DNA of 64,000 nucleotides from an uncultured Candidatus Saccharibacteria bacterium. GTDB lineage: Bacteria > Patescibacteriota > Saccharimonadia > Saccharimonadales > JAGQNJ01. Shown here piece after piece: positions 3,121-61,766 of the stretch; position 1 is the first letter of the stretch; each line of letters starts with the position of its first letter. The notes beneath the pieces are model-generated. The model searched no databases. It had not been told where the DNA came from and saw only the letters and a program-made list of their open reading frames with translations. The translations under genes and the position numbers were made by a program. The stretch spans positions 67,351 through 131,350 of the forward strand of contig CAZBPY010000002.1 in the NCBI GenBank assembly GCA_964493895.1, in the 5' to 3' direction.

Positions 3121-4491
3121 CTATTCACCCTGGAAAGGCTGTTCGGAGCGGCGCTTGTCCAGGCTGCGAAAACGTTGGCGTTCTTTGTCGAAGAAAAGTT
3201 CAATAGCCCCGACCGGACCGTTACGGTGCTTTTTAATAAACAGGTCAGTTATGCCCTTTCGCTCTGATTCTGGATTGTAGTAGTCTTCACGATAGAGGAA
3301 GGCCACCACGTCAGCATCTTGCTCAATGGAGCCTGATTCACGTAAATCAGCTAGATTTGGAATCTGCGGACTGCGGTTCTCTACTGAGCGGCTTAACTGG
3401 CTAAGGGCAATCAGCGGTACGTTTAATTCTCTGGCAATCCCCTTAAGACCGCGCGATATCTCAGAAATTTCCTGGACGCGATTGCCTTCGCTCTGATAGC
3501 GCCCACCGCCGCTCATCAGCTGAAGATAGTCAACGATAATTAGGCTAATCGGGCGGCGGTGGGCTTCGCGCCGGGCCTTGGTTCGTAAGTCACTAACTGT
3601 GATGCCCGGCGTGTCATCAAAGAACATCTGGGCTTCGGACAACGTCCCCATAGCTTGGCCGATTTTTTCAAAGTCAGTGTCACTAAGGTTGCCAGTACGC
3701 AGTGACCAGGCATCGACTCCGGACTCCATGGCCAGGAGGCGGTCGACTAATTGCTCCTTACTCATTTCCAGACTGAAAAATAATACCGACTCATCAGCTT
3801 TGGTGGTAATATTGTGAGCCAAGTTCAGCGCCAAAGCCGATTTACCCATAGCAGGACGGGCAGCCAGAATAATCAAATCTGATCTCTGCAGTCCGGCCAG
3901 CATATTGTCTAGATCTCTAAAGCCAGTTGGAATGCCGCGGATCTTGTCCTTGTCTTTATGGAGTTCATCAAGTCGTTCAAAACTATCGCTCAGGATTTCT
4001 TCCAACGAAATAACGTTCTGCCCGACATAGCGTTGACTGGTTTGAAAGAGGCTGGACTCGGCCTCCTCAATTAGCTCCTGCAGGTTTTTTGTTTCATCAT
4101 AACCGAGAGTCACGATCTCTTGGCTGGACTTAATTAGTTTCCGCCGCAGAGCCTTTTGCGACACAATCCCGGCATATTGCTCAATGTGAGCTGCCGTCGG
4201 CACGTAGTTTGTTAATTCGCTCAAATATGACGGACCGCCAACCATATCAATAAGGCCATTGGCTTTCAGTTGGTCAGTCAGAGTTAGGACATCAATCGGA
4301 CTGTGCTTATCGTAAAGTTGCTTGATACCTTCAAAAATACGTTGGTGCCGCTCATCATAAAAGTCATCTGCACTTAAAGCATCAGCAATCTTAACAATGG
4401 CATCGCTGTCGATTAGAATGGCGCCAAGCAGACTGGCTTCGGCGTCGGTGTTCTGCGGCGGTATGCGGCTGGGGTGAGTTTTGTCGTCCAT
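3121..4491 (-). CDS. dnaB: replicative DNA helicase DnaB
   Basis: 456-aa ORF with an N-terminal DnaB domain (PPQNTDAEASLLGAIL), Walker A ARPAMGKSA and RecA-like C-terminal motifs. Confidence 0.95.
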   Translation of the reverse strand: MDDKTHPSRIPPQNTDAEASLLGAILIDSDAIVKIADALSADDFYDERHQRIFEGIKQLYDKHSPIDVLTLTDQLKANGLIDMVGGPSYLSELTNYVPTAAHIEQYAGIVSQKALRRKLIKSSQEIVTLGYDETKNLQELIEEAESSLFQTSQRYVGQNVISLEEILSDSFERLDELHKDKDKIRGIPTGFRDLDNMLAGLQRSDLIILAARPAMGKSALALNLAHNITTKADESVLFFSLEMSKEQLVDRLLAMESGVDAWSLRTGNLSDTDFEKIGQAMGTLSEAQMFFDDTPGITVSDLRTKARREAHRRPISLIIVDYLQLMSGGGRYQSEGNRVQEISEISRGLKGIARELNVPLIALSQLSRSVENRSPQIPNLADLRESGSIEQDADVVAFLYREDYYNPESERKGITDLFIKKHRNGPVGAIELFFDKERQRFRSLDKRRSEQPFQGE

Positions 4492-4494
4492 AGG

Positions 4495-5916
4495 TTAGTC
4501 CTCTAGTACTTCCCCACCGCCAAAAACTTTTGTTATTGACTCCAGTGTATCAGATTTAGCCGGCTGTCTTGGTTCATCTGGAGCTGGCGCAGCCTGTTTT
4601 CGGGCATTTTTATCGATCTCCGGCCTCATTTCAACCGGCTGGCCGTAGATTTCGGTAATGATAGCCTGAACCTTGTCTTGATTGCGGCTTTCAGCGAACC
4701 GCCGGCGATGAAAATCAAAGGCAAAACCCAGCACTAATACCCCACCCTCAATTGATATTGATGCCATCCGGGCAATACCATAAAGCGTATTATGCGAACC
4801 ACGCAGCTTATCTAACACCTGATCCCAAAGACCGCTTTCCAAAGCAGCCTCCAGATCGCCATTTGGCGCCGGCTTTGAGGTAGTTTTAACGTCTTGGATA
4901 ACCTTTGTTTTCTTTGGTTCGGCGGCAACCGATGCAGGTTTTGCCGCCACGGCCTCTTGACTGCCCAGGGTGTTTTCCAGTAAAACTAGTTCCAACTCTT
5001 GGTATGGTTGCAAAGAACCAGGCACATCAAGAAGCCCGCGCAGTAGCTTCAAAGCCTGACTACGCGGCAACTCGCCCTTCAAAAGAGCCGTTCGCACAGA
5101 ATCAGCCAAGTGCCGAGCCAAAACTGTGGCTTGAATTCCCCGAGATTGAGCTTCATCCAACTCGGCTAGCAGCTCTTTAGGATTATTAACATTTAATGAA
5201 CTGATAATTTTCTCAACAGTGTCGTCCGGCGGAATGCCAAGGTGTTGGCGGACGGCATCTTCAGAAATTTGATCGCTAATATTGCGCAGCTGATCCAATA
5301 AATTGATGCTGTCACGAAAGCTTCCGTTACCATGACGAGCAATAATTTGGGCGGCCGCATCGTCAAGTTTGATTTTCTCCTTCTTGGCAATAGTTTGCAG
5401 ATGCAATGCCGCCTGTTTAGTGTCGATTGGCTTGAAACTGTAGCGCTGAGTCCGGCTAACAATCGTCTCAGGCAGTTTGTGGGCCTCAGTCGTGGCCAGG
5501 ATAAAAATTACATGAGCCGGTGGTTCCTCAAGAGTCTTTAGGAGGGCATTAAAAGCTTCACGCGTTAACATATGCACCTCGTCGATAATATAGACCTTAT
5601 ACGGAGCCTGCAGCGGGCTAAGGCGGGCTTTATCTCTTAGGTCACGGATTTCATCAATCCGGCGGTTACTGGCGGCGTCAATCTCAATAATATCGATATG
5701 CTGCGAATCATCAGTTTTATAAGGCAATTTATTGACCTCATGAGCCAAAATCCTGGCTACACTAGTCTTGCCGACACCACGCGGGCCGGTGAACAAATAG
5801 GCGTGACTGATCTTACCCGATTTCAGGGCTTTATCAAGTGTGTCGGTTATGTGCTCTTGACCGATAACTTTAGACAGTTTTTTGGACCGGTGTGTCCGGT
5901 AAAGTGCTTTCCCCAT
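4495..5916 (-). CDS. dnaX: DNA polymerase III subunit gamma/tau
   Basis: 473-aa ORF with the clamp-loader AAA+ motifs GPRGVGKTS, IIDEVHML and SRTQRY. Confidence 0.93.
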   Translation of the reverse strand: MGKALYRTHRSKKLSKVIGQEHITDTLDKALKSGKISHAYLFTGPRGVGKTSVARILAHEVNKLPYKTDDSQHIDIIEIDAASNRRIDEIRDLRDKARLSPLQAPYKVYIIDEVHMLTREAFNALLKTLEEPPAHVIFILATTEAHKLPETIVSRTQRYSFKPIDTKQAALHLQTIAKKEKIKLDDAAAQIIARHGNGSFRDSINLLDQLRNISDQISEDAVRQHLGIPPDDTVEKIISSLNVNNPKELLAELDEAQSRGIQATVLARHLADSVRTALLKGELPRSQALKLLRGLLDVPGSLQPYQELELVLLENTLGSQEAVAAKPASVAAEPKKTKVIQDVKTTSKPAPNGDLEAALESGLWDQVLDKLRGSHNTLYGIARMASISIEGGVLVLGFAFDFHRRRFAESRNQDKVQAIITEIYGQPVEMRPEIDKNARKQAAPAPDEPRQPAKSDTLESITKVFGGGEVLED

Positions 5917-5925
5917 AGACTATTA

Positions 5926-5931
5926 ATTATA
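5926..5931 (-). promoter_or_regulatory. -10 box TATAAT 9 nt upstream of dnaX ATG (leaderless-type start)
   Basis: Minus strand reads TATAAT-taatagtct-ATG, with no SD in between. Confidence 0.4.
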
Positions 5932-5964
5932 GCGAAGTTTGGCTATCAGTAGCGTTGTAAAAAG

Positions 5965-6474
5965 CTACAATGCAGCTTCTAGAGCGGCCCACTCAGCTGA
6001 TTCATCATCTTCAGGAACGTTGATGCTAACTTGGTCGCCTGGCTTAGCTTTGAAGTAAGTAACCGAAGCCAATAGCACGCGGTACTTACGTTTTTCGACA
6101 TCAACATAGTAATGGCCGTTTTCCATCACCAATGTGCCTACCTTTTGGATACGGGCAACTGGGCCAATCTGCTTATATAAGAACGATCCATCGTCAGCAA
6201 TAGTCAATTTTAGGATATCGCCTTGCACCAACTTAGATTTTGAAGCGTAATTAGCCGGCACCGGATAGGTTTTACCATCCGAACCAACCATATTTTGGCC
6301 ATCAAAAACACCCTCAACAATTTTGCCAGCGATATCTTCAGTTGGCTTTATCGGTGCTGTTTCGTCATCACCAATAAGGCTAACCAACAGCTCCTTGGCT
6401 GCAGCCATGCTAGTTTCAGCTTCTTGAATCAGGGCTCTAAGGCGTTTAATCTGCTTGTCGGATACGTCTGCCAT
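5965..6474 (-). CDS. hypothetical protein (N-terminal helix, beta-rich C-terminal half)
   Basis: 169-aa ORF filling the gap between rplL and dnaX. I recognise no family. Confidence 0.7.
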   Translation of the reverse strand: MADVSDKQIKRLRALIQEAETSMAAAKELLVSLIGDDETAPIKPTEDIAGKIVEGVFDGQNMVGSDGKTYPVPANYASKSKLVQGDILKLTIADDGSFLYKQIGPVARIQKVGTLVMENGHYYVDVEKRKYRVLLASVTYFKAKPGDQVSINVPEDDESAEWAALEAAL

Positions 6475-7705: not shown

Positions 7706-7908
7706 TGTTCCTCCTTGATTATTAGCATCGACCTAGTTGTTAACGTACTTCGCGCCTAAAAAAGTCCCTGGACGAGCCAAGGACGAAGAGAAACTACAAA
7801 TTACTTTGTAATAACCTCGGCGACATGATTAAGCCTAGATTGCTCTTCGGCCGTCGCTGTCTTTGGCGAATACCCTGTTATTTTATATTGAATTCAGATC
7901 GAGGTCAA
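7706..7908 (-). promoter_or_regulatory. rplJ promoter and structured leader with attenuator-like hairpin
   Basis: TTGACC-15nt-TATAAA lies at 7908..7882. The leader contains CCTTGG-ctcgt-CCAGGG followed by acTTTTTT (7782..7758). An L10-leader role is inferred from position only. Confidence 0.35.
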
Positions 7909-9314: not shown

Positions 9315-11628
9315 ATTGCGTGTAACGCTCAGCAGCCAAACGGGTTAACTCGGGATCTTCGTCTTGGTTTACGAACTTCATATGGCTGGCTAGAATCGGG
9401 TGAACCTCGGCAACTTTATCATGCATGGCCTTTGTTAGTTTTCGGTAGTTGGGATGTCCCTGTGGCGAGGTCCGTAGTTCATGCCAGTGGAAAGCTTGAC
9501 GGGCGTTGTAGGTCACCTTCCAGCGCATTTTATGCCCAAGTAGCGTGGCGTATTGAGCTTCTAAATGATAGCCGGCACTTTGCAAGCGACTGTACAGACC
9601 TAAACTGATATCAAAGCACCGTTCAAATTGTTCACTTAAGCCAGCTTCTTCGACGAGCTTCGGTACTTCATAGCCGTATCGTGGAGTCAGAGCTTGCCAC
9701 TGAAGGTCATCAACTATCCGGTGCCGTTGAAGATCACGGAAACTCCCATAGTCACAGACCAGGTCAAAACTATAATGGGCTTTTTCCAGAGCCCGTCCTG
9801 GTCGATGCCGGCGATTTAGCCGCTCACCCATGTAGGCTTCTATGACCTTGGTTTTTTGGCTGTATTTCCAATCAGCGACTGTTTTGCGAATCTCGGTTAA
9901 TGGCAGGTTGCTGTGTTCGTAAAGCATATCAGCCGCCAAGTCCAGCTCATTGCGTGGCCAATAATCAGTTAGTGTCACATCTGTCGTTTCAGGGGCAAGT
10001 GAGGCTGGCAGCAGTTCTTCGGTAACTTTTTTCATGATTTTTCTGGTATCTGACCGGTAAGCAATCATGGCGCCGCCGCGTTCTGGTTTGTCAGCTCGCT
10101 CTAAGAAGGCGGGGATAACCTTTCGGGCTTCGCGCAGAATTTTATCGCCGGTTTCACGGGCTTCTAGCAGTTCATCAGCTTGCAAGTGCATAATTAGGCT
10201 CTCCAGGGCTTGGCCGGAAGCAAAAATGCCAACAGTAGACGTTGTAGCTACTGGCAGTACCGGCCGAATGGCATCGCAAGCCTGAGCCCGTGTAGCGCTG
10301 CGCCAGGCTCCGTCTCGTTCGGATTCTGGGGTGCTGGAATTATTCTGAATATAGTCGGTTAGTTTGCGAACCATTGTCGAATACAGATCAAAAATTGTAT
10401 CCATATCTTGGTTGTACAGTGCCTGAGTCGCCATATTAAACTGCTTGGGTGTAAAATACCGATATTTGCCGTTTTTATCCTTGCGATCGAAGTAAATATA
10501 GCGAGTTGACTGCTCAAGATAAGCCGCCAGTCGCCCCCACTCCAACTTTTTAGTCAGCAAATTGGAAGCATTTTCGACCACCAGATGAGTTCCGACTAGT
10601 TGCTGGACGGAATCATCGCCATAAGCTGTGATTACTCGATGTAACAGCTGTTCGTCTTTCTCGGCTGCCTGAGTGAATTCGTCCAGGATTGTTACCCGCA
10701 TGTCATCACCTCGGCGGCTCAGCCGAGCCATAGCAGCGGCAGTTGTAACTGGACTGACACCTTTTCCGGAGAAGACATAGACATCTCCTTCAGTGTCGGT
10801 GATAGCCTTGGCCAAAAAGGCGCGCCCACTGGGGGTAATTTCGTAGCCGGAATCTGTCTTGGTTACATAAGGGTTTTCCTCCTCTACCTGATTACCAGCT
10901 GATCTAGACTCGGTCGAAGCCTTCTTTTCCGGCAAAAGCGGCTGAATCGTTTCACGCACCAACTTACTAATCGTATCAACATCAAGCATCTTGTTGTCTC
11001 GGGTACAGTCAATTCGAGCAAAATCTTTTGGGAACAACTGGCAGAGTTCGTCATAAACTTCAACCGAAAGCTTGAGGTGCGACAGATCAGCCTCGTGGAT
11101 ATCCCGGCGTTTTTTTGTATAACTGCGAGTATCTTTTTGATCAACTAATTGTTGAGCTACTTCTGCCGGAACTCTTAAGACGATGCTTTTAGACGGTCGT
11201 GGAATGTTCATCATTTGAAATTCTAGGTTATCTATCCAGATGAAATAGCCGCGGCGCTCTTCGGTGTTATTGAATTTTGTGCCCTGATGAGCCATGTTTG
11301 AGCCTGTAAATCTATTGGCAAGCACCACCTTGCCTTCTTGCAAAGCTCGATGAATCGCTGGAGCGGCCTGGTAACGATCGAGGGCATAAAACAGTGATGC
11401 CGTATATGGTCCGACATCTTCTGGGCCACCATACTCACCGTTGAGATACTGTTGCACAAAGTAACTGGATGGCTCATCATAACGGGGAAAATCAAAGGTG
11501 ACGACATCATAGCCATCGGCGATAAGTTGATCACGCAGTAGGTTGAACTGTGTATTTTTACCCGAGCCATCAGTTCCCTCAATAACAAGAAAAACACCCT
11601 GATGTTGGTTGCTCTTATCGTCAGTCAA
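9292..11628 (-). CDS. tmk-thyX: fusion protein: thymidylate kinase (N-terminal) + double-length ThyX-like flavin-dependent thymidylate synthase (C-terminal)
   Basis: 778-aa ORF. Residues 1-210 carry the P-loop IEGTDGSGKNTQ and ALDRY (Tmk). The C-terminal ~530 aa has two ThyX-like halves, one with EQSTRY and one with LQRHR ... TPRY. Confidence 0.8.
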   Translation of the reverse strand: MTDDKSNQHQGVFLVIEGTDGSGKNTQFNLLRDQLIADGYDVVTFDFPRYDEPSSYFVQQYLNGEYGGPEDVGPYTASLFYALDRYQAAPAIHRALQEGKVVLANRFTGSNMAHQGTKFNNTEERRGYFIWIDNLEFQMMNIPRPSKSIVLRVPAEVAQQLVDQKDTRSYTKKRRDIHEADLSHLKLSVEVYDELCQLFPKDFARIDCTRDNKMLDVDTISKLVRETIQPLLPEKKASTESRSAGNQVEEENPYVTKTDSGYEITPSGRAFLAKAITDTEGDVYVFSGKGVSPVTTAAAMARLSRRGDDMRVTILDEFTQAAEKDEQLLHRVITAYGDDSVQQLVGTHLVVENASNLLTKKLEWGRLAAYLEQSTRYIYFDRKDKNGKYRYFTPKQFNMATQALYNQDMDTIFDLYSTMVRKLTDYIQNNSSTPESERDGAWRSATRAQACDAIRPVLPVATTSTVGIFASGQALESLIMHLQADELLEARETGDKILREARKVIPAFLERADKPERGGAMIAYRSDTRKIMKKVTEELLPASLAPETTDVTLTDYWPRNELDLAADMLYEHSNLPLTEIRKTVADWKYSQKTKVIEAYMGERLNRRHRPGRALEKAHYSFDLVCDYGSFRDLQRHRIVDDLQWQALTPRYGYEVPKLVEEAGLSEQFERCFDISLGLYSRLQSAGYHLEAQYATLLGHKMRWKVTYNARQAFHWHELRTSPQGHPNYRKLTKAMHDKVAEVHPILASHMKFVNQDEDPELTRLAAERYTQFKLNQLD

Positions 11629-18631: not shown

Positions 18632-18707
18632 AGGGGAGTAGCTCAATTGGTAGAGTAGCGGTCTCCAAAACCGTTGGTTGCAGGTTCAAGTCCTGTCTCC
18701 CCTGCCA
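18632..18707 (+). tRNA. trnW: tRNA-Trp (anticodon CCA)
   Basis: Cloverleaf read by eye: acceptor AGGGGAG/CTCCCCT, anticodon loop CTCCAAA, T-loop GGTTCAAGTCC, encoded CCA end. Confidence 0.9.
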
Positions 18708-19246: not shown

Positions 19247-19321
19247 TGGAGCCGACGACGAGGATTGAACTCGTGACCTCATCCTTACCATGGATGCGCT
19301 CTACCACTGAGCTACGTCGGC
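19247..19321 (-). tRNA. trnT: tRNA-Thr (anticodon GGT)
   Basis: The reverse complement is GCCGACGTAGCTCAGTGGTAGAGCGCATCCATGGTAAGGATGAGGTCACGAGTTCAATCCTCGTCGTCGGCTCCA, with anticodon loop ATGGTAA. Confidence 0.9.
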
Positions 19322-19428: not shown

Positions 19429-20517
19429 GTGAACAAAATTAGTTTGCCAGTGAGTATTTTACTGATCGCTATTGTAATTGGAGCCATTGTTTTCGGCTAT
19501 ACTCAGAGGTCACGAACGCCGAATTTACCCGATCCGCCGCTGAAAGAGCTGGCAGATAAACACAACGTCGAGCTGGGCAATTTCGCAATTCTAAATCGCT
19601 TGGATGAGCAGCCTTATCGCGACATTTTGACCAGCGAGTTTGATTTTGTTTTGGCTGATAACACCCCTAATTGGCATTTCACCGACGGCGGTCTGCGCCC
19701 CAGCAAAGACGAGTTCAACTTCAAGCAAATGGATGAAGTCATGCGTTTTGCTCAAGAGAACAATATGCCGGTACAGGCTCATCATTACTTGTGGGGTGAA
19801 GAAAAGTGGCTGCCGGATTGGCTCAAAGAAGGTAATTTTTCTCCGGAGGAGCTCAACAAATTGATAGAGACGCACATCAAAACAGTTGGCAGCCGCTATC
19901 GGGGTCAAATTCGTGAATGGACCGTTGTCAACGAAGCCTTTAGCCGCAATTCTCACATCTATGGTTTGCGTGACTGGTGGGCCGACAACACCGGCGGGCT
20001 TGATTACATTGATCAAGCATTCCGATGGGCTCGTGAGGCTGACCCCGACTCTAAGCTAATTCTGAACGATTTTCTCAATGAAAGCCGCAACGACATCTCT
20101 GATGCTATGTATGAATATCTAAAAAGCGCCTTGGCCCGCGGCGTGCCAATCGATGGAATTGGTATGCAAATGCATATTGATGGCACACATCCGCCTACGA
20201 AAGACGAGGTCGTTTCTAATATGAAGCGCTTTGAAGAGCTAGGCCTTGACGTGTATGTGACTGAGTTTGACGTCAACATGAACGATCTGCAGGCCAGCAG
20301 CAGTAATAAGAACCAGGTTCAGGCCCGGATCTATAACGAGATGTTATCGGCTTGTCTGGAGGTTGATGCCTGTAAAAGTTTTGCTCTACTTGGCATAACC
20401 GATAAGGAAACCTGGTATAACTATGTTGGCCTGGAAGATCCTAGGCCGCTGCCGTTCGATGATAAATACCGTCCTAAGCCAGCTTATTTTTCGATGCGCG
20501 AAGCTCTGCAGCGATAA
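19429..20517 (+). CDS. glycoside hydrolase family 10 endo-1,4-beta-xylanase with N-terminal TM/signal anchor
   Basis: 362-aa ORF with a GTG start and the GH10 motifs WTVVNEA (acid/base Glu), GIGMQMH and VYVTEFD (nucleophile Glu). Confidence 0.85.
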   Translation: MNKISLPVSILLIAIVIGAIVFGYTQRSRTPNLPDPPLKELADKHNVELGNFAILNRLDEQPYRDILTSEFDFVLADNTPNWHFTDGGLRPSKDEFNFKQMDEVMRFAQENNMPVQAHHYLWGEEKWLPDWLKEGNFSPEELNKLIETHIKTVGSRYRGQIREWTVVNEAFSRNSHIYGLRDWWADNTGGLDYIDQAFRWAREADPDSKLILNDFLNESRNDISDAMYEYLKSALARGVPIDGIGMQMHIDGTHPPTKDEVVSNMKRFEELGLDVYVTEFDVNMNDLQASSSNKNQVQARIYNEMLSACLEVDACKSFALLGITDKETWYNYVGLEDPRPLPFDDKYRPKPAYFSMREALQR

Positions 20518-20949: not shown

Positions 20950-21035
20950 TGGTGCAGGGGGAGGGATTCGAACCCCCGAAGGCATAAGCCAGCAGATTTA
21001 CAGTCTGCCGTGTTTGACCGCTTCACTACCCCTGC
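20950..21035 (-). tRNA. trnY: tRNA-Tyr (anticodon GTA), long variable arm
   Basis: The reverse complement is GCAGGGGTAGTGAAGCGGTCAAACACGGCAGACTGTAAATCTGCTGGCTTATGCCTTCGGGGGTTCGAATCCCTCCCCCTGCACCA. Confidence 0.9.
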
Positions 21036-21145: not shown

Positions 21146-21222
21146 TGGAGCCGCCTGTCGGATTCGAACCGACGACCTACGGTTTACAAAACCGTCGCTC
21201 TAACCAACTGAGCTAAGGCGGC
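21146..21222 (-). tRNA. trnT: tRNA-Thr (anticodon TGT)
   Basis: The reverse complement is GCCGCCTTAGCTCAGTTGGTTAGAGCGACGGTTTTGTAAACCGTAGGTCGTCGGTTCGAATCCGACAGGCGGCTCCA. Confidence 0.9.
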
Positions 21223-46468: not shown

Positions 46469-46945
46469 TTACCTCGCAAAGTGGGCGAAAGCTCGGTTGG
46501 CTTCGGCCATCTTATGTGTATCTTCGCGCTTCTTAACAGAAGTCCCGGTGTTATTGTAAGCATCGACCAATTCAGCAGCAATTCGATCTTCAGTTGACAT
46601 ACCAGACTTGGCTCGTACAGCTTGGACAAACCACAGGATTGTCAGATGAGACTGTCGTTGACCTTTAACCTCAAATGGAATCTGATAGTTAGCACCACCT
46701 ACTCGTCGTGACCGAGTCTCAACACTGGGTTGAATATTCTTAAAAGCTTGCTCAAAAACCTCCAGAGGATTGTCAACTTTCAAACGATCTGCCGCCTTTT
46801 GCATGCCGTTATATACTAATCGCTCGGCAACCTGTTTTTTGCCGTCATGCATAATGCGGTTTATGACACGCTGAACCATCACGCTATTGTAGACGCGATC
46901 GGCCGGAATGTCTCGAACTAGTGATTTGGTCTTCTTCCTGGGCAT
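46469..46945 (-). CDS. rpsG: 30S ribosomal protein S7
   Basis: 158-aa ORF beginning [21 protein letters not shown]. Confidence 0.96.
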   Translation of the reverse strand: MPRKKTKSLVRDIPADRVYNSVMVQRVINRIMHDGKKQVAERLVYNGMQKAADRLKVDNPLEVFEQAFKNIQPSVETRSRRVGGANYQIPFEVKGQRQSHLTILWFVQAVRAKSGMSTEDRIAAELVDAYNNTGTSVKKREDTHKMAEANRAFAHFAR

Positions 46946-47358
46946 TATTTGCCAGCCTTTTTGGTGCCGTACTTACTTCGGCCCTGTTTACGGTCTTGAA
47001 CACCTTGTAGGTCAAGCGCACCACGGACTATGTGGTAGCGTACACCCGGGAGGTCCTTTACGCGTCCACCACGGATTAGGACTACGGCGTGTTCCTGTAG
47101 GTTATGGCCTTCACCACCGATGTAAGCCCAAACTTCGTGACCATTTTGCAGTCGGACACGAGCCACCTTACGAAGCGCCGAGTTCGGCTTTTTAGGTGTT
47201 TTGGTAGTCACTTTAACGCAAACCCCGCGCTTGAATGGTGATGGTTTTTCATAGTTAGTCGTCGTCAGGTTGTTAACCACGCGGTGCAGTGCCGGAGACT
47301 TCGATTTCTTAGTCACCTTGGCACGCGGTTTTCGAACTAATTGATTGATTGTTGGCAT
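46945..47358 (-). CDS. rpsL: 30S ribosomal protein S12
   Basis: 137-aa ORF with [12 protein letters not shown] and [11 protein letters not shown]. Confidence 0.97.
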
Positions 47359-55703: not shown

Positions 55704-56300
55704 TTAACGGCTGGTGATAACCTTGTCGACAAGACCGTAGTCTTTGGCTTCTTCGGCGGTCATCCAGCGGTCGCGCTCCATGTCATCATGGATTTTAGCC
55801 TTTTTCTGGCCGGTATTGTTGACCATAATATCTTCGATTAAGCCCTTGATACGCAAGGCCTCCTTGAGATCGATTTCTTGATCGGTAACTTTTCCGCGGG
55901 TGCCACTCGAAGGCTGATGTATCATGACGGTCGAATTCTTAAGCAAAAACCGCTTGCCCTTTGTGCCAGAACTTAGCAATATGGCCGCCGCACTGGCTTG
56001 AACACCAATGCCGACTGTTTCAATATCACACTTGACGAATTGCATGGTGTCATAAATCGCTAATGCGTCATAAACACTGCCGCCGGGGCTATTAATGTAG
56101 AGCTTGATGTCTTTTTTGGGGTCTTCAGCCTCTAAAAACAGTAGCTGGGCGACAATTAAGTTAGCAGTGTGTTCATCAACCGGCGTACCAAGAAAAATAA
56201 TGCGCTCTTTTAACAGACGTGAATAGATGTCATAAGCCCGCTCCATGCGGCCTTCAGTTTCAATAACTGTTGGAACAAGAATATTGGATGGTTTGCTCAT
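55704..56300 (-). CDS. clpP: ATP-dependent Clp protease proteolytic subunit
   Basis: The start is moved to ATG 56300 ([38 protein letters not shown]), 7 nt after TATAAT. Confidence 0.93.
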
Positions 56301-56307
56301 GTTTAGC

Positions 56308-56336
56308 ATTATAAGCCACCAATTAGCACTCGTCAA
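56308..56336 (-). promoter_or_regulatory. clpP promoter (leaderless-type)
   Basis: TTGACG-17nt-TATAAT-7nt-ATG. The -35 sits in the CIRCE spacer. Confidence 0.5.
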
Positions 56337-56349
56337 GTGAGAGTGCTAA
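56323..56349. promoter_or_regulatory. CIRCE element (HrcA operator), perfect consensus
   Basis: TTAGCACTC-gtcaagtga-GAGTGCTAA equals the published consensus TTAGCACTC-N9-GAGTGCTAA with 0 mismatches. Confidence 0.85.
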
Positions 56350-56769: not shown

Positions 56770-58053
56770 CTATTTTGTGGCGTATTCCACCAATTTCTGA
56801 ATGGTTTTTTCAGTCAGCATGCGGCTGGCAATGTCTCGTTGAGCCTCCGGCTTGTCCAGCTCGGCCTGCATAGCAGCATCCTGATACTGGCTCCTCAACA
56901 TTTGCATTCGCATCTCAAGTTCATCCGGGCTAACTTCCAGTCCTTCCTTATCAGCAATTTCAGCCAGCACCAGTCCAGCGCGTACCCGTTGTTCAGCTTC
57001 GGGGATTAGGATTTCTTGGCGATACTCTTCCTCTGTTTTATCTTCACGCTTTAGAAACTCCTCAAAGGTTAGACCGCGGTAAACCAGGTTTTGGCGCAGC
57101 TCATTCATCAGTCGCTCGACCTGATCGTTAATCATCACCTCTGGAACAGTCAGCTTACTCTTAGCCGCCACCTCTTTTATAACCTCACCTTCGAGGTTCT
57201 GCATAGCTTGGCTCTGTCGCTCTCGACTCAATTCGGCCTTGATATTGTCGCGCAGCTCCTTAACAGTCTTAAACGGTCCAGCCTGAGTTGCAAATTTATC
57301 ATCCACTTCGGGTAAGGTTTGCTCCTCGACTTTCTTAACCTTAACTGTGAAGGTAACTTTTGAACCGGCTAAAGCTTTGACCCCATAATCTTTGGGGAAG
57401 GTTAGGCTGAAGGTTTTCTCCTGGCCGGCTTTTACGCCAATCAGATTCTTTTCAAAGCCGGGTATAAACTGATCACTGCCCAGCACCAAGGGATAGTCCT
57501 TGCCCTCCGCGCCGTTGATAACTTTGCCGTCAGCGTCGACACCTTTGAAGTCAATCTCAACTTTGTCGCCGCTGGCCGCAGTTCGCTTTACGGATTTACT
57601 GCTCGCCAATCTCTGCTGCAGACTCCTGACCACATCATCTACATCTTTGTCCTTAACCGACACTTTAGGCAGTGTCTTCTTGATTTTCTTATAGTCTGCC
57701 AGCTTGATCTCACCAAGCACTTCAACTTCGGCGCTAAATTCCAAATTGGTAAACGGCACAAATTTTTTCAGTGTTACTTTCGGATTGTCTACCGGCCGCA
57801 ACTTTTCCTGATTCACAGCATCGGTGTACAGGTGATTGATGGCATCCTCGACGACATCAGCCTGCAATCGCTGCTGGTCAATATTTTTCTCGACTACGTT
57901 AAGCGGTGCTTTGCCTTCGCGAAAGCCCTGAACTTTGACCTCCTTGGCCAGTTTCTCTAGAACATGGTTTTTATACTCAGCCAGCTGGTCCTCGCCAGCA
58001 GTGATAGTCAGCTCAACCTTATTGTCAGATAGATTTTTCCGAGTTATATGCAT
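56770..58053 (-). CDS. tig: trigger factor
   Basis: 427-aa ORF with a three-domain trigger-factor layout, including an FKBP-like middle region (GDKVEIDFKGVDADGKVINGAEGKDYPLVLGSDQFIPGFE). Confidence 0.93.
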   Translation of the reverse strand: MHITRKNLSDNKVELTITAGEDQLAEYKNHVLEKLAKEVKVQGFREGKAPLNVVEKNIDQQRLQADVVEDAINHLYTDAVNQEKLRPVDNPKVTLKKFVPFTNLEFSAEVEVLGEIKLADYKKIKKTLPKVSVKDKDVDDVVRSLQQRLASSKSVKRTAASGDKVEIDFKGVDADGKVINGAEGKDYPLVLGSDQFIPGFEKNLIGVKAGQEKTFSLTFPKDYGVKALAGSKVTFTVKVKKVEEQTLPEVDDKFATQAGPFKTVKELRDNIKAELSRERQSQAMQNLEGEVIKEVAAKSKLTVPEVMINDQVERLMNELRQNLVYRGLTFEEFLKREDKTEEEYRQEILIPEAEQRVRAGLVLAEIADKEGLEVSPDELEMRMQMLRSQYQDAAMQAELDKPEAQRDIASRMLTEKTIQKLVEYATK

Positions 58054-61681: not shown

Positions 61682-61766
61682 TGGTGCGGATGAAAGGACT
61701 CGAACCTTCACGCCCTGAGGCACTAGTTCCTAAGACTAGCGTGTCTACCAGTTCCACCACATCCGC
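61682..61766 (-). tRNA. trnL: tRNA-Leu (anticodon TAG), long variable arm
   Basis: The reverse complement is GCGGATGTGGTGGAACTGGTAGACACGCTAGTCTTAGGAACTAGTGCCTCAGGGCGTGAAGGTTCGAGTCCTTTCATCCGCACCA. Confidence 0.9.

Follow-up and report, generated by a model that had tools for sequence, protein, structure and literature searches.

A CIRCE element enclosing the predicted -35 box of clpP points to HrcA control of the ClpP protease gene in Saccharibacteria

Results

The clpP locus

The DNA analysed here, called the window throughout, is a 64-kb stretch of a Saccharibacteria genome in which hisS, a 232-aa ORF, the trigger factor gene tig, a 124-aa ORF (P124), clpP, a 226-aa ORF, rpoB, rpoC and ribosomal protein genes follow one another along the minus strand. 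The clpP coding sequence (55704..56300, minus strand) encodes 198 aa plus a stop codon and is identified by its matches to Pfam CLP_protease (2.8e-77) and NCBIfam PRK00277 (293.9 bits, cut-off 249). Upstream of it lie P124 (56346..56720, minus strand) and tig (56770..58053, minus strand), the latter with the Pfam domains Trigger_N, FKBP_C and Trigger_C. Apart from one tRNA (18632-18704, plus strand) and a 362-aa ORF (19429-20517) for which the minus strand offers no competing ORF of comparable size, every sizeable gene in the window is encoded on the minus strand. Rfam models also place a ribosomal protein L10 leader (7749-7884) and four tRNAs (19250-19321, 20953-21035, 21149-21222 and 61685-61766) on the minus strand.

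Between P124 and clpP, and reaching into the end of the former, positions 56323..56349 hold a perfect 9-N9-9 inverted repeat. On the plus strand it reads TTAGCACTC-GTCAAGTGA-GAGTGCTAA and agrees at 18 of 18 positions with the CIRCE consensus that we used, TTAGCACTC-N9-GAGTGCTAA. We annotate the operator on the minus strand, with a proximal arm at 56323-56331, a spacer at 56332-56340 and a distal arm at 56341-56349 (proximal and distal being relative to the promoter). It is the sole CIRCE match in the 64-kb window when both strands are searched with up to three mismatches allowed, against a chance expectation of 0.02 from dinucleotide shuffles (1 of 100 shuffles gave any match). An earlier, sequence-only reading of this DNA had claimed a perfect CIRCE here, and its placement is right to the base.

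On the minus strand the region runs CATAA TTAGCACTC TCACTTGAC GAGTGCTAA TTGGTGGCT TATAAT GCTAAAC ATG AGC AAA CCA. The predicted -35 hexamer, TTGACG (56331..56336), consists of spacer bases 5-9 and the first G of the proximal arm, a register that we call class B; the -10 hexamer, TATAAT (56308..56313), lies 17 nt 3' of it, and the proposed ATG of clpP (56298..56300) follows 7 nt past the -10 without a Shine-Dalgarno (SD) sequence. This TTGACG/TATAAT pair is the top sigma-70-like site in the 3.6-kb region scanned, at 11/12. Both the overlap of the operator with the -35 box and the order TTGACG, 17 nt, TATAAT, 7 nt, ATG had been put forward in the sequence-only reading, and each part was found as described, with TTGACG sharing the spacer and the proximal arm. 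An HrcA operator is expected in or near the promoter of its target; here the arms stand on either side of the predicted -35, with the -10 and the ATG following in the next 45 nt. We propose that the 27-bp element is very probably a functional HrcA operator (CIRCE) inside a sigma-70-type clpP promoter of this Saccharibacteria genome.

The TAG stop codon of P124 (56348..56346) lies inside the distal arm, as had also been noticed earlier. We consider this overlap incidental, because the arms contain TAG and TAA and will end any ORF that enters them in the right frame. P124 itself has no Pfam or NCBIfam match and no homologue in 80 related loci (see below); it is lineage-specific and of doubtful standing as a real gene. 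In the nearest relative (L214), an unrelated 75-aa ORF (4726-4953) ends at the same CIRCE-arm TAG. In both the window and L214, the gap between tig and clpP is occupied by small ORFs that are lineage-specific and for which neither homologues nor domains could be detected; these may be spurious, closed by the stop codons in the arms. A terminator scan of the minus strand found no terminator-like site between tig and clpP, so read-through from tig into clpP is possible; if it occurs, it would weaken control at the clpP promoter.

Conservation of the operator

Related loci were collected by a ClpP-based scan with one genome retained per species, which gave 80 loci (2.9-20.6 kb each, roughly 1.3 Mb together) with ClpP 74-82% identical, nearly all of them titled Candidatus Saccharibacteria or Saccharimonadales, which places the window in a Saccharibacterium (CPR/Patescibacteria). 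Matches to tig are present in 78 of the 80, just upstream of clpP where inspected. A CIRCE stands directly upstream of clpP in all 80 (near 9900-9960 in most of L001-L080), and in 79 it has at most two mismatches. The other site, in L045, is CTGGCACTC-TTGACATGA-GAGTGCCAG, a symmetric four-mismatch variant with a -10 of its own. One locus, L034 (DATHJH010000004.1), is titled Candidatus Limnocylindria (Chloroflexota), and its tig-CIRCE-clpP arrangement is typical of Saccharibacteria, with ClpP 79% identical; this contig may be misbinned.

Automatic scoring covered 77 of the clpP sites. Fourteen CIRCE positions (2, 4-9, 19-24 and 26) are invariant at all 77, and the outer positions 1/27 and 3/25 vary independently, with 19 combinations that would be C-A or A-C mispairs. 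Such independent variation is better explained by two half-sites contacted by protein than by pairing in an RNA stem. The invariance across 80 species-level genomes argues strongly that a protein able to bind the clpP operator is present. Within the roughly 1.3 Mb of clpP loci, the sole other CIRCE with at most two mismatches is in L033 (3549-3575), where CTGGCACTC-TTGACCTGT-GAGTGCTAA, with an embedded TTGAC, precedes a clpC-like ORF of 826 aa (3633-6113), 6.4 kb upstream of clpP on the same contig.

The predicted -35 box within the operator

Conservation within the spacer is restricted to the bases that make up TTGAC, the remainder being variable. TTGAC is found inside it at 75 of the 77 scored sites, and by eye in 78 of the 80 loci; L067 and L079 have TTGCA in its place. 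Two registers four bases apart are used, spacer bases 1-5 in class A (TTAGCACTC-TTGACnnnn-GAGTGCTAA, 49 sites) and 5-9 in class B (TTAGCACTC-nnnnTTGAC-GAGTGCTAA, 28 sites, the window's class). A -10-like hexamer, most commonly TATACT, TATCAT or TATTAT, follows the embedded -35 after 17 nt (49 sites), 18 nt (25) or 16 nt (3). In the nearest relative, with ClpP 95% identical, the class B spacer is again TCACTTGAC, followed by TACTAT, 9 nt and the ATG.

Nesting of the -35 box in a CIRCE is not specific to CPR, an idea that we discarded on finding it in contigs of 61-69% G+C. In four such contigs (L084, L087, L113 and L140), small genes for FmdB-type zinc ribbons (Pfam Zn_ribbon_8) stand behind a CIRCE whose spacer contains TTGAC, and since contigs of this composition are unlikely to be CPR, both the nested design and the unusual FmdB-type target appear to reach other phyla. 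A scan of viral contigs for the nested CIRCE/-35 pattern gave 0 matches.

Start codon and leader

In the window, the 7 nt between the -10 and ATG 56300, with no SD, predict that transcription begins on the A of the AUG or right beside it, and on this geometry we lean towards a leaderless clpP mRNA. The ATG lies 5-10 nt past the -10, without an SD, at 32 of the 77 scored sites; leaders of 11-45 nt, mostly with an SD-like sequence, are found at 31 and longer ones at 14. A public entry identical to the window's ClpP (P0121, 201 aa) starts three codons earlier, at ATG 56309, which falls within TATAAT and is incompatible with a leaderless transcript from the predicted promoter. In the six closest relatives retrieved, ClpP begins at the counterpart of 56300 (with N-termini such as MSKTTNS, MTKPSNS and MSQPTNS), and because these match ATG 56300 the annotated ClpP is probably three codons too long.

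The two registers differ in the leaders that accompany them, class A going mostly with SD-containing leaders (37/49, against leaderless geometry at 12/49) and class B mostly with leaderless geometry (20/28). Four relatives share a clpP leader of about 60 nt between the -10 and the ATG (..TCCCAGGTRAAA..GGGGT..CGAAAYGAGGTGA ATG; L005 ~9935-10000, L047 ~4495-4560, L054 ~3465-3530 and L057 ~2450-2515), for which an Rfam search with the L057 copy returned a chance-level match only and no family. Elsewhere on the minus strand of the window, -35/-10-like pairs lie 6-9 nt before the ATGs at 47358 (137-aa ORF, 46945-47358), 58813 (the 232-aa ORF) and 18964 (67-aa ORF); leaderless transcription may be no rarity here.

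Other genes behind the operator

A metagenome scan for the class A pattern returned at least 120 loci. The first downstream ORF is hrcA-like in at least 34 of them, dnaK in at least 23, clpP (64-81% identical to the window's) in at least 8, groES in at least 5, clpC in at least 5 (clpC-like in L111, L128, L138, L154 and L184), an FmdB-type zinc ribbon in at least 4, clpB in at least 3-4, hsp20 in at least 2, and groEL and dnaJ in at least 1 each. The dnaK, groES and groEL genes behind the nested pattern are on metagenome contigs, which in the case of groES and groEL may belong to other lineages. In Saccharibacteria, a perfect CIRCE precedes hrcA-grpE-dnaK (L202-L210) and a variant precedes hrcA-grpE (L211/L212).

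The regulator gene itself is not near clpP, as tblastn searches of the window and the 80 loci found no hrcA, and likewise no dnaK or groES/EL within 10 kb. Queries consisted of a B. subtilis-like HrcA with E. coli GroES, GroEL and DnaK, and of CPR HrcA, DnaK, GroES, GroEL, Hsp20, ClpB and DnaJ; ClpC in L033 was the sole match. CtsR is what usually controls clpP in Firmicutes; its tandem heptad box, GGTCAAA-NAN-GGTCAAA, has no match within 5 kb of clpP even when three mismatches are tolerated, and weak matches elsewhere number five against 2.15 expected. CtsR-type control of clpP is thus not indicated.

The presumed regulator

Saccharibacterial and CPR-like hrcA genes encode products of only ~225-245 aa (referred to here as the ~235-aa form), examples being P0048, P0119 and P0001, those of loci L202-L212 (hrcA at 4001-4708 in L202) and many of those in L082-L196. 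Pfam models detect the HrcA DNA-binding domain in them and, of the HrcA C-terminal domain, only the second half. Aligned to T. maritima HrcA (1STZ), they cover residues 15-136 and 243-326 only, leaving a clean gap of ~100-105 residues (1STZ ~137-242) relative to canonical HrcA; the missing segment is what we take to be the inserted dimerizing domain. The architecture of full-length HrcA (winged helix, GAF-like domain and inserted dimerizing domain) is accordingly incomplete in the short form, and its score against the HrcA equivalog model, NCBIfam TIGR00331, is 180-187 bits, below the cut-off of 197.2. A profile of the short proteins nevertheless finds 1STZ with E = 8e-28, the winged helix is ~46% identical to canonical HrcA over the first 74 residues, and the C-terminal GPxRxxY signature is retained. 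One clade carries the NCBI title 'transcriptional regulator [Candidatus Saccharibacteria bacterium]' and the JGI title 'heat-inducible transcriptional repressor'. We assign the short protein, by its domain content, to a truncated HrcA subfamily that is predicted to work like HrcA; being atypical, it may have properties that differ from those of the HrcAs studied so far.

The Saccharibacterial hrcA gene heads hrcA-grpE-(70 aa)-dnaK-...-dnaJ or hrcA-grpE clusters. Upstream of it stands TTAGCACTC-TTGACACTT-GAGTGCTAA, or CTAGCACTC-GCATTGAAA-GAGTGCTAG followed by TATACT and 6 nt to the ATG, and this CIRCE too has an embedded -35. As hrcA is the first gene of the cluster with the CIRCE in front of it, autoregulation is likely. 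Besides the perfect site at 3923, L202-L210 contain a second, degenerate CIRCE 50 nt further downstream (~3973-3999). It reads TTAGCAAAC-N9-GAGTGATAA, with three mismatches, and falls after the -10 but ahead of the hrcA start. This double arrangement resembles that of Lactobacillus plantarum hrcA, which reportedly has two CIRCE elements upstream.

Discussion

Here, we propose that clpP belongs to the HrcA regulon in Saccharibacteria. The sequence-only reading had suggested this assignment for the window, and it is strongly supported by the comparative evidence: the presence of CIRCE at clpP in 80 of 80 loci, its rarity elsewhere, the reuse of the same operator at canonical targets, and the existence of a Saccharibacterial hrcA behind a CIRCE. 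In Saccharibacteria, a single switch would most likely govern both the chaperones and the degradation of proteins.

How might HrcA act at this promoter? Because the arms bracket the -35 box in the spacer, occlusion of that box is the most economical mechanism. An HrcA dimer on both arms would span roughly -51 to -25 and deny sigma region 4 access to the -35, so that repression is probably a matter of promoter occlusion. Proteotoxic or heat stress would make HrcA release the DNA, and clpP would then be derepressed along with hrcA-grpE-dnaK, groES/EL, clpC, clpB and hsp20. The resulting transcript would probably have its 5' end on the AUG, or no more than a couple of bases away from it, and would then be leaderless.

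Other readings of the same palindrome have to be weighed against this one. It could act mainly as an RNA hairpin, namely a terminator at the 3' end of tig-P124, a stabiliser or a processing site, and not as a repressor site for clpP. In favour of this are a stable RNA structure, a 12-bp hairpin with a folding energy of -19.1 kcal/mol (z = -3.7 relative to shuffles), upstream genes that run in the same direction, and the lack of any other terminator-like site from tig to clpP. Yet no U-tract follows the stem in the window (UUGGUGGCUUAUAAU; UUGGUGGCU), the terminator scan reported no minus-strand site at the palindrome, and the T-rich stretch past the arm is common to all targets and runs into the -10. 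What is kept at the 77 scored sites is the sequence of the core and not merely its complementarity, the outer positions changing without regard to pairing. Moreover, the identical 27-mer with its embedded -35 stands before hrcA, dnaK and groES whatever lies upstream, and in L202 the upstream gene is divergent. We have rejected an intrinsic terminator as the primary role, given a stable stem that lacks a U-tract and the conservation of sequence rather than pairing, and consider a mainly RNA-level function highly improbable. Scarcely credible, in our view, is that the clpP element is an unregulated relic or is bound by a regulator other than HrcA. The window's lack of hrcA would fit such a view, as would a Saccharibacterial HrcA that is truncated and scores under its equivalog cut-off, but 14 positions would not have stayed invariant in 77 species-level genomes if the element were an unbound relic, and the short HrcA retains both its winged-helix domain, with the similarity to 1STZ given above, and its C-terminal signature, and is itself encoded behind the same operator.

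A further reading accepts the operator and disputes the leader: clpP would start at ATG 56309 (MLNMSKP...) on a longer mRNA read through from tig and P124, with the CIRCE-bound repressor serving as a roadblock. The 201-aa database entry is in its favour, as are the lack of a terminator-like site upstream of clpP and a TTGGTGG 6-7 nt before ATG 56309, whose weak GGTG is possibly usable. Against it stand the position of that ATG within TATAAT, the start sites of the six closest relatives, the short -10 to ATG distance without SD at 32 of the 77 sites, and the near-consensus -35/-10 pair kept at essentially every site, which would not be expected of an unused promoter. We judge this reading unlikely.

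The HrcA-CIRCE repressor-operator pair is well described (PMC3842655; PMC545781), and the Saccharibacterial hrcA, first in hrcA-grpE-dnaK and with a CIRCE, matches the description in PMC3842655. With the B. subtilis-type system at the dnaK and groE operons, the window's site shares the consensus TTAGCACTC-N9-GAGTGCTAA and a housekeeping-sigma promoter. The B. subtilis CIRCE operator is located downstream of the -10 and the start site, whereas the operator here encloses the -35 hexamer. The target also differs, being a ClpP protease gene in place of the class I dnaK and groE targets, as does the repressor, which at ~235 aa is ~105 residues shorter than canonical HrcA.

The sequence-only reading had implied that CIRCE at clpP is unusual, which holds only in part, since clpP of Streptococcus salivarius has already been described, by the title of the study concerned, as under dual CtsR and HrcA control (Chastanet and Msadek 2003, J Bacteriol 185:683, as cited in PMC3842655 and PMC6305308). 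The likeness lies in clpP being under HrcA, as that title and PMC6305308, which reports overlapping HrcA and CtsR regulons in streptococci, indicate. On the same sources, S. salivarius HrcA shares the control of clpP with CtsR, whereas the Saccharibacterial locus has no CtsR box and CIRCE is apparently its sole operator; and the streptococcal case concerns one species of another phylum, against 80 of 80 related genomes examined here. A parallel comes from the Mollicutes, where HrcA is the only stress regulator and CIRCE is found at the dnaK operon and at clpB and lon (PMC5138195). Like Saccharibacteria these are genome-reduced, have very few transcription factors and carry CIRCE at AAA+ protease and disaggregase genes, but the targets are lon and clpB rather than clpP and clpC, the sites are degenerating or duplicated where the core here is invariant, and a -35 nested in the spacer is not reported for them in PMC5138195. 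In delta-proteobacteria, groESL is the HrcA regulon's sole constant member and clpP has sigma-32-like promoters (PMC545781).

That clp and protease genes can belong to an HrcA-CIRCE regulon is therefore already known. What is new is the phylum, with CIRCE at clpP in 80 of 80 genomes examined and at clpC in at least L033 and some metagenome contigs, together with the apparent absence of a second regulator and the presumed pairing with a truncated HrcA. Our literature search found no paper linking HrcA or CIRCE to Saccharibacteria or CPR, and a TM7x transcriptome paper contained nothing specific on TM7x clpP. We see the finding as extending a well-known system, solidly but modestly, and as overturning nothing known about HrcA.

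Gene regulation in Saccharibacteria and CPR is almost unexplored, and the clpP site provides a concrete, testable regulon assignment. The proposed wiring of ClpP in every related genome examined, and elsewhere of ClpC, to the repressor of the chaperones suggests that these genome-reduced epibionts unite protein folding and degradation under one stress switch, a consolidation that parallels that of the Mollicutes with lon and clpB. A broader proposal, whose merits we find evenly balanced, is that in Saccharibacteria, and probably in much of CPR/Patescibacteria, the truncated HrcA is the sole master regulator of the entire proteostasis network, acting through a standardised operator-in-promoter cassette. 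The network may comprise the DnaK, GroES/EL and sHSP chaperones, the ClpB disaggregase and the ClpC/ClpP protease, and the cassette may consist of a -35 placed in the CIRCE spacer at either of two discrete registers, often with leaderless translation. If true, this would be the first regulon defined for a largely uncultured radiation, and the nested operator-promoter, compact and invariant, would offer a stress-inducible promoter module for new genetic systems in Saccharibacteria and CPR.
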